A DNA stretch of 63,186 bases, the filler included, from Platydemus manokwari (taxonomy: Eukaryota): NCBI GenBank assembly GCA_037951405.1. It is 5 parts of 5 records of this genome, joined end to end, with 100 filler letters (N's around TTAATTAATTAA, not from the genome) between each part and the next. Parts side by side here need not be neighbours in the genome. Positions count along the whole stretch, not along the records: positions 12,300 to 25,472 come from JBBMOY011812501.1; 4 more parts are not named here. One strand, written 5' to 3'. Of this stretch, positions 12,300 through 13,870 are shown in pieces (position 1 is the first letter of the stretch; every line of letters starts with the position of its first letter). The notes below the pieces were generated by a model. The model had not been told where the DNA came from. It searched no databases and saw only the letters and a list, made by a program, of their open reading frames with translations. Both the position numbers and the translations under genes were made by a program.

Positions 12300-13250
12300 A
12301 TCTTGAGCACTAACATCGAAACAAAATACTGAGTATAAATTTTGAAAATCTAACATATTTAATTGTGGTTTATTTTAAAATTCTTAATACAAATTAACAT
12401 AAGCTAAATAAGGTTCTATTTGATTATTAGTTGCTATTATTAGTTAATATCTGAATCTTTGAATCCTAAGAGTATAATTTTTGGTCTATTTTTAAATTAA
12501 ATACTTGTCATGCATACGTTAATCCTTATGGAACATTAATATAATTTGCTAATAGATTTAAATAATTTACTTCAACTGGTTTATCGGTATTCAATCTTTC
12601 TAATAACCTTATTCATTCTTTAGATTAAATCAATTCTGGCATACAAAATTCTAATGATTTAATAGGTAATTTTTCTTTCACTCTTTGTTTCATAAATATT
12701 GTTCTTGTCATCAGTATTTCTATTTAAAGTCACCTACTCATTTTAAGATATAATAGTCTGTTATAACTTATATTCCGCTGAATATTAGTTTCTTATTATA
12801 AAAAGCTTTTCTTCATTAAAAACATTTATTGTCTTTATCAGGATCTTCTTTAATTTTATCTGGTAACCAACCTAATTGTTCTCCGGTTTCTTCATCTGTT
12901 TTGTCTAATAATACAAAATTCAGTAAACTAGACACATCAATTTCATGAGTTCCTAATGTTAATCTCACTAAGTTAAAAAAATTTGGAAAGAATTTATTTT
13001 CTAAAGTAATAATATGATCAACCTCTACATTGTTTTCGCTTGACTTTTTAAATTTAAGTTCAATATTGTATCTTAAGAAACTTTTGCAAATAGCTACAGG
13101 ATTAGAAGTTTGTTGAGATTCTAAAACAATGTTTGTTGATTTATTTAAATTAGTGGTGGTTGTTGATGATGGATTAATAATATATAAATTTTCTTTCTTA
13201 ATATTATGTATAAATTTATAAATATTTTGATTTAATTTTTCAATCCTCAT
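12300..13250 (-). pseudogene. Degraded double-jelly-roll major capsid protein of a Polinton/Maverick (adintovirus-like) element
   Basis: The 144-aa ORF contains TNLN...SFL...ITLENKFFPNFFNLVRLTLGTHEID...GWLPD. It continues through stops and frameshifts as IKSLEFCMPE...LLERLNTDKPVEVNYL...NRPKIILLGFK...DFQNLYSVFCFDVSAQD, which recalls Polinton MCP motifs. No introns. Confidence 0.7.
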
Positions 13251-13283
13251 TTTTTATAGATAAAATTTAAGGATATTTTTATC

Positions 13284-13870
13284 CTACGAGGAATACTTTT
13301 TCATGATTTTATTTTTTCTATCTTCATTTATATGTCTTAATTTATTTAATTTTGTTAAGATATTATTTATTGAATTATAAACATTATTATGTCCTCCTTT
13401 TTTAGCAGATAATAATTTTCTTAATTCAGAAAATAACTCTATCGGATTTTTTTAAACCTGTTCCTGTAAAAAAAGAATTCAATTTTCAGTTAAACTCTTT
13501 TCGACCATTTTGCTTTTTAAATAGTCTAAATAAGGTATATCTTTTTTTTCAAATATCCCTGCTTAAGATAAAATTTTAAAATAAATCGCAATCCACTTAG
13601 AAGTTGTTCTATTATAATGATCAGCATGATTACCTGCAAACATTAAAACCTTTAAATTATCTGTTATTGGAACAGTTTCATCAGCTTATTCAAAATAATC
13701 TTCATCTTTATATTTATAAATTAAAAAAAACCATGCTTATCTATCTGCATGTAGGAAAATTTTCCGTCTTCTGTTTTCTGTATATGTGGTTCGATTTGAG
13801 GATCTATCTATAGGAAACTCCTTTCAGTTTAAATTTGTTTTCACCAATAGATTTTCTTTTGGTGATTGGA
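13284..13870 (-). pseudogene. Degraded Polinton-type ORF upstream of the capsid gene
   Basis: C-terminus NPIELFSELRKLLSAKKGGHNNVYNSINNILTKLNKLRHI resembles the DPNELxxRLxLLxAxxxAGNxxxxNEIxxIxxxL motif of a conserved Polinton/adintovirus protein. It ends ~35 nt before the capsid ATG on the same strand. Confidence 0.6.

Follow-up and report, generated by a model that had tools for sequence, protein, structure and literature searches.

Gene content of the locus

The window, i.e., the whole 63,186-nucleotide stretch of DNA that was analysed, carries a broken cluster of virus-type genes at positions 12300 to 14011. Two decayed frames on the minus strand were identified as a double-jelly-roll major capsid gene (13250-12300) and a conserved, PZ-like neighbour gene (13284-13727). 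A 36-codon piece like the C-terminal core of an rve integrase was found on the plus strand (13904-14011). The original prediction had described two tightly packed, decayed frames on one strand, recognized by four named motifs. The frames were placed 33 bases apart, stops and frame changes were seen in them, and all four motifs were found on the minus strand. Of the limits proposed at that time, 12300 to 13870, the one at the gap edge was retained, whereas the neighbour gene was supported only at 13727-13284 and the limit of 13870 became tentative. The integrase piece and a second relic at 34.3-34.65 kb had been left out of the extent.

The capsid gene starts with an ATG at 13250. By tblastn and profile matches, it was mapped from intact homologues as four collinear pieces in three frames, i.e., 13250-12789, 12768-12493, 12490-12443, and 12437-12300. 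The pieces contained 10 stops (2, 6, 0, and 2, respectively) and three frame changes. Compared with the homologues, about 17 and about 40 residues were gone at two internal deletion junctions, and approximately 45 codons of the 3' end were lost at the contig edge. This edge is the gap at 12200-12299, N runs around a 12-base spacer, which truncates the element. It is one of five N gaps in the window, and the capsid relic begins at the first base past it. The gene was intronless; it was collinear with the intact homologues (408-482 aa) but shorter, and nothing as long as an intron was inserted. The only long open frame was the uninterrupted first 144 codons (12819-13250, minus strand), which served as search query. 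The capsid motifs on the minus strand were ITLENKFFP (13010-12984), LTLGTHEI (12962-12939), and FQNLYSVFCFDVSAQ (12347-12303).

In the full HMMER search, the 144 aa ORF gave 30 matches at E<=0.001, the best with E 8e-25 and 62% identity. Twenty-one of the 30 were scanned against Pfam: 12 passed the cut-off of PF21738, the double jelly roll-like domain (DJR-like_dom), 4 fell below it, 3 gave nothing, and 2 were unrelated repeat proteins. P0005 and P0012, long repeat proteins of other families, were omitted from all alignments. A profile built from 11 full-length matches found 28 proteins, and PF21738 was present in 27 of them. On the six frames of the window the capsid profile reached E 4e-37, far above chance, whereas the best value in the reversed-window control was 3.4.

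Structure was compared through the AlphaFold model of the natural homologue P0010 (pLDDT 78, pTM 0.82), i.e., a model of a relative and not of the window's own broken gene. The model matched the major capsids of Singapore grouper iridovirus, Sputnik, mavirus, and PBCV-1 (E about 1e-13, TM 0.5-0.6), and adintovirus and MELD virus entries were among its many capsid matches in BFVD. In the Atlas, the neighbours of homologue P0037 were DJR-like clusters (scores 0.96-0.98); the top two were 94-97% eukaryotic with Arthropoda as the commonest phylum.

The window's own pieces gave no direct family match in Pfam, and word-seeded protein searches with the capsid ORF (lengths set to 'longer') and with the neighbour gene returned nothing; the capsid assignment therefore rests on the homologues. 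No match was found in phage genomes or, by sequence, in PDB. In IMG/VR viral contigs, 189 and 143 pattern matches were obtained and none was confirmed. The window ORF and the neighbour gene of locus L006 were absent from the Atlas. By way of the natural relatives, their PF21738 domain, and the P0010 model, the reading of 12300-13250 as a decayed double-jelly-roll capsid gene is supported, as the original prediction had proposed.

The neighbour gene ends with its own stop at 13286-13284, 33 bases upstream of the capsid ATG, and has four internal stops. Its motif, NPIELFSELRKLLSAKKGGH, lies at 13448-13389 on the minus strand. The gene may extend to about 13870 in other frames. Among 30 metagenome loci, ORFs of three (L002, L006, and L009) matched 13685-13287 by tblastn, and a C-terminal motif was common to six related ORFs. 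A profile of six natural relatives matched 13727-13293 far above chance (E 4e-19 versus 1.5 in the reversed-window control; hhalign probability 98.4).

In L006, the neighbour gene lies immediately before the capsid gene and on its strand, which is the order in the window; only one of six aligned loci showed this order. Relatives of the neighbour gene directly follow the packaging ATPase in L002, L009, and L016, and are fused to it in L010 and L012. The fused ORFs, at L010:106-1713 and L012:124-1761, encode packaging ATPase and PZ-like gene as one frame of 536-546 aa. The name PZ is provisional and comes from a motif and from this gene context. No gasdermin or pX match to Pfam was found in the five neighbour-gene relatives scanned, and pX-like matches fell in another ORF. 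The model of a relative of the gene had pLDDT 46, too poor for a structure search. The position adjoining the ATPase fits the Polinton PZ gene as outlined in parts of PMC8097293, where the PZ of vertebrate Mavericks belongs to the polymerase-ATPase module, which is encoded on the other strand from the capsid module. The relatives occur in the same virus-type gene clusters as the capsids, and sequence comparison supports the neighbour as a conserved gene of the same elements, in agreement with its earlier reading from an NPxEL-type motif as a second conserved Polinton gene.

The putative integrase piece was matched by a profile of five relatives' ORFs (E 1.3e-4, control 3.2). In pairwise searches of a 1.2 kb region, it matched the integrases of L002, L004, and L025 at E 8e-5 to 2e-4. 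The piece alone had no match in Pfam, and the remainder of the integrase gene was absent. With this piece on the other strand, the main relic reaches about 14011 and is a fragment of 1.7 kb. Its left side is lost in the gap and its right side is an internal break. Eight profiles of the relatives' other genes, each from 3-7 relatives, were run on the window. No minor capsid, protease, polymerase, small ORF, or either of two pX-like groups was detected by their profiles in the window, the element being cut by the gap. No packaging ATPase was seen in the main relic, nor was a Maverick end motif, (AG)3 or AGTAGT, found in 13900-14600. Weak similarity to an integrase C-terminus at 14218-14368 (E 0.08) was not accepted, as this region is low-depth DNA with a partial duplicate at 16.3-17.6 kb.

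Second relic

Two further pieces were found at 34.3-34.65 kb. The first, on the plus strand at 34270-34389, resembles, over 31-40 codons, the N-terminal part of an A32-type packaging ATPase and includes a degenerate stretch like a Walker A motif (profile E 1.6e-4, control 0.33). It shares 48-52% identity over 31 aa with the ATPases of L002, L010, and L015, and by itself had no match in Pfam. The second is a short and more diverged capsid piece on the minus strand at 34466-34645 (profile E 4e-6 to 7e-6), with 72% DNA identity to the main relic over 88 bases. The two pieces face each other. Because the ATPase piece lies 77 bases from this second capsid piece, the window contains two separate, internally deleted relics.

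Directly next to the second relic lies a separate high-depth repeat, at about 34620-34900 (bin depth 22,789). The short sequences CACTAC (34659) and GTAGTG (34772) are inverted relative to each other and hint at a small inverted-repeat element. Its ends are presumably CACTA-like.

Relatives and lineage of the capsid

The scan of JGI metagenome contigs yielded the 30 loci, on contigs of at most 7.9 kb. From these, 32 ORFs were picked for Pfam: Pox_A32 was found in four (L002, L009, L012, and L016), rve in three (L001, L002, and L025), a PLA2-like domain in two, and, weakly, adenovirus pX in two. The capsid relatives of L001, L002, and L025 adjoin the rve integrases. The minus-strand ORF at L002:5191-6513 (441 aa) combines a zinc finger, a parvovirus-type PLA2-like domain, and an rve integrase, and in L001 two neighbouring ORFs encode the PLA2-like and rve parts. 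A 538 aa ORF of L016 has motifs like those of a family B polymerase, with no match in Pfam or PDB. Other conserved ORFs of the relatives, with fitting sizes, were taken by us from their motifs to be protease and minor capsid genes. Pfam and PDB gave no support for the candidate polymerase, protease, and minor capsid genes. According to the parts of PMC4028283 and PMC11161782 used here, Polintons encode pPolB, rve integrase, protease, ATPase, and two capsid proteins. The gene set of the relatives fits these elements and also the adintoviruses as presented in portions of PMC8502044.

In a quick tree of 47 N-terminal sequences, built without named Polintons or other named references, the window capsid paired with P0003 (SH-aLRT 94), and the pair fell inside a 29-row clade of unnamed metagenome proteins (SH-aLRT 100). 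The first 144 codons of the window capsid showed best identities of 36-56% to members of the clade. All 28 proteins matched by the profile derived from ENA, Logan, or JGI, and no informative name was attached to the members listed for 20 clusters. Full-length members of this metagenome family (P0003, P0036-P0053; L001-L025) are intact, 408-482 aa, whereas the window copy is broken.

Setting of the relics

The window is AT-rich, with 20-37% GC per kb, and is eukaryotic DNA with spliced genes. By Pfam, these are two CDK exons, BBS5, an ABCA C-terminal domain, and an SRF-type factor. The gene style points to an invertebrate animal as the probable host, although the CDK exon was about equally close to human CDK1-3 and to a protist CDK. 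A ULK1-like reading of 57063-57374 is tentative and had no Pfam match. Proline-rich exons at 29500-31020 (plus strand) look like a WIP/verprolin-type actin regulator, as we presume; the Pfam query ended before the motif and gave no support.

The last exon of an ABCA-type transporter (PF23321) was found on the minus strand at 11918-12199, where it borders the gap; no upstream exons of the gene were found. The main relic may lie inside an intron of this ABCA-like gene, or the two may be on contigs that are not linked.

No family was identified when 14000-25472 and 25573-38321 were translated across stops in six frames and scanned against Pfam; long X-rich queries of this kind are insensitive. 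A low-depth tandem duplication was seen at 14130-15680 and 16336-17650 (six blocks at 73-82% identity), with no family identified. Probable decayed retroelement pieces were placed at 35200-36900 and 24000-25000, without Pfam match; depth was 298-1,436 at 35224-36599. Near 36.8 kb, a motif which we take to be that of a gypsy-like integrase was noticed, and it had no Pfam match either. A 75-base repeat occurs twice, at 38247-38321 and 41013-41087 (88% identity). Its copy at 38247-38321, at a contig edge, is very deep in run X1 (bin depth 27,861).

Probable integration and abundance in run X1

One public run, X1, contains the stretch, and it may be the window's own sample. No RNA data set was listed as containing the stretch. 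A 561-base contig of X1 (depth 15) is identical to the window from 13930, inside the integrase piece, to 14490, and further contigs (depth 13-19) continue to 17796. Another contig of 5,723 bases (depth 11) spans 28925-34648, covering the second relic completely together with 5 kb of flank. Both relics are thus joined to low-depth DNA, since X1 contigs run across relic and flank.

The summed contig depth, which is not a copy number, was 13,564-101,239 in six bins over 12300-13445, i.e., 534-3,986 times the flank depth (median 25.4 of 21 flank bins). Two neighbour-gene bins (13446-13827) had depths of 644 and 691, 25-27 times the flank, and the bin of the integrase piece (13828-14018) had 10,908, 429 times the flank. 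Other repeats in the window reached similar depth, 22,789 and 27,861. In total 3,219 contigs were aligned, with 387 at >=99%, 643 at 95-99%, 1,174 at 90-95%, and 1,015 below 90% identity; contigs were matched at an identity cut of 80%, at which joints are often false. At one capsid position, 77 contigs summed to a depth of 172,172, about 2,200 each on average versus about 20 in single-copy flank.

The simplest reading of this depth is a large and diverse family in a repeat-rich genome, of which the present copy is one decayed member. The family possibly comprises related copies or pieces of the order of a thousand, as judged from depth. The original prediction had raised an undescribed lineage with intact relatives elsewhere in this genome as a possibility, and the depth in X1 points to many related copies.

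A somewhat unlikely account of the depth is that many full-length elements are not involved, and that a short non-autonomous deletion derivative, made of the capsid gene and the 3'-terminal part of the neighbour gene, or else dispersed fragments were amplified. Depth drops from 91,130 to 644 and 691 inside the neighbour gene and climbs again at the integrase piece, many contig joints skip parts of the capsid gene, and both relics of the window are internally deleted. However, the dip falls on the least conserved part of the neighbour gene, where diverged copies would drop below the 80% cut, and joints at that cut are often false.

It is doubtful that the host carries a massive expansion, with copies of the order of a thousand and some of them recent and near-identical, of a Polinton lineage otherwise seen only as unnamed metagenome sequences. 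The present genome would then be the first assigned host of the capsid clade, and the lineage could still produce virions.

Improbable, too, is the idea that part of the coverage comes from a free, replicating virus of the same family in the sample, with the window as an older fossil of that virus. The 77 contigs of about 2,200 each at one capsid position would agree with it, as they point to many sequences that are very abundant and almost identical to one another, and free-ended adintovirus sequences are reported from animal read sets in the consulted part of PMC8502044. Against this idea, the contigs are spread across all identity classes, and unrelated repeats are equally deep, as expected in a repeat-rich genome.

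Nature of the relic

Taken together, 12300-14011 is very probably a broken, rearranged three-gene fragment and the fossil of an integrated Polinton/Maverick (adintovirus-type) element. The proposal of a Polinton/adintovirus-like relic was thereby supported, with relatives that carry packaging ATPase and rve integrase genes; jelly-roll matches were obtained, and no spliced cellular gene was the best match. From Polinton biology, the parent would have been an element of 15-20 kb copied by a protein-primed DNA polymerase. It would have been inserted into host chromosomes by its rve integrase, and its A32-type ATPase could have served to package the DNA into icosahedral capsids of the double-jelly-roll type. 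After insertion, most genes were presumably lost, and a deletion or rearrangement would have put the middle of the integrase gene back to back with the neighbour gene. The copy would then have decayed. Because most genes are lost and the rest is decayed, the copy would make no capsid and has no likely function.

Quite improbable is an origin from a related but distinct small DNA virus, polinton-like or another MELD virus, with the integrase piece as a chance match or part of a separate retroelement. The capsid gene alone does not separate these groups, and virophages, MELD viruses, and giant viruses score alike in the structure matches. No polymerase was found in the window by profile search, and the presumed gypsy-like motif near 36.8 kb would suit a separate retroelement. 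Yet the near capsid relatives adjoin rve integrases in L001, L002, and L025, and the window piece resembles the integrases of these relatives. In the passages of PMC11161782 used, pPolB and rve integrase together define Polintons.

It is hardly tenable that the region is a cellular gene, spliced or domesticated, or that a contig of a free virus was misjoined to the scaffold. In favour, the first 144 codons are open, host introns are short, and the relic lies at a contig edge. Against this, the pieces are collinear with intact capsids, with deletions, 10 stops, and no insertions as long as an intron, and no cellular family matches in Pfam. Moreover, both relics are continuous with low-depth DNA on X1 contigs, and broken capsid genes would not be expected in a free virus.

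As the probable fossil of a Polinton, the relic is one more decayed copy of a kind common in eukaryotic genomes. Through it, a capsid clade seen in unnamed metagenome contigs is linked to a eukaryotic nuclear genome, and attention is drawn to a host where the family may be very abundant. If recent, intact copies truly exist at that scale, this host would be well suited to a search for Polinton particles, none of which had been observed as of PMC8097293, in the part of that paper used here.

Comparison with known systems

Polinton-like viruses (Aquintoviricetes) form a capsid clade of their own, separate from Polintons, and usually lack an rve integrase combined with pPolB, whereas the relatives in this study carry rve integrase, which argues against placing the relic among them.

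With the adintoviruses (Alpha and Beta), as far as covered by the sections of PMC8502044 drawn on, the relatives share the module of capsid (hexon), integrase, and packaging ATPase, and PLA2-like and pX-like domains. Degraded endogenous adintoviruses are described there in many animals, including one in the human genome. Their PLA2X/GasderminX differs from L002, in which the integrase ORF includes the PLA2-like domain and a separate ORF has the pX-like one. GasderminX combines a gasdermin C-terminal-like domain with a pX-like C-terminus, and neither was matched in Pfam by the five neighbour-gene relatives scanned.

In vertebrate Mavericks, the excerpts of PMC8097293 place PZ on the strand opposite the capsid, whereas the PZ-like gene of the window and of L006 lies immediately before the capsid gene. 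Their copy numbers are low in the same excerpts (median 8, highest 287), and the depth in the window suggests far more. Most Polinton copies in animal genomes are decayed fossils, with 134 intact copies and 2,166 without discernible terminal repeats counted for vertebrates in that partial source.

With Polintons/Mavericks of the class Polintoviricetes in general, as portrayed in the portions of PMC4028283, PMC8097293, and PMC11161782 used, the locus shares the double-jelly-roll capsid gene and intronless, packed genes. An rve integrase and an A32-type ATPase are present in the relatives and, as short putative pieces, in the window. Unlike a whole element, which is 15-20 kb long with terminal inverted repeats, end motifs, and a 6-bp target site duplication, the window holds a 1.7 kb rearranged fragment, with no polymerase, ends, or target duplication in view.

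Large loads of Polinton-type DNA in a single host genome are already on record. In the passages used, PMC6431247 gives a load of up to 30% of the Trichomonas vaginalis genome, and a preprint (bioRxiv 10.1101/2025.04.19.649669) gives 12-16% viral regions for unionid mussels, a leafhopper, and a coral. For the present host, a load of this kind is suggested by contig depth only.
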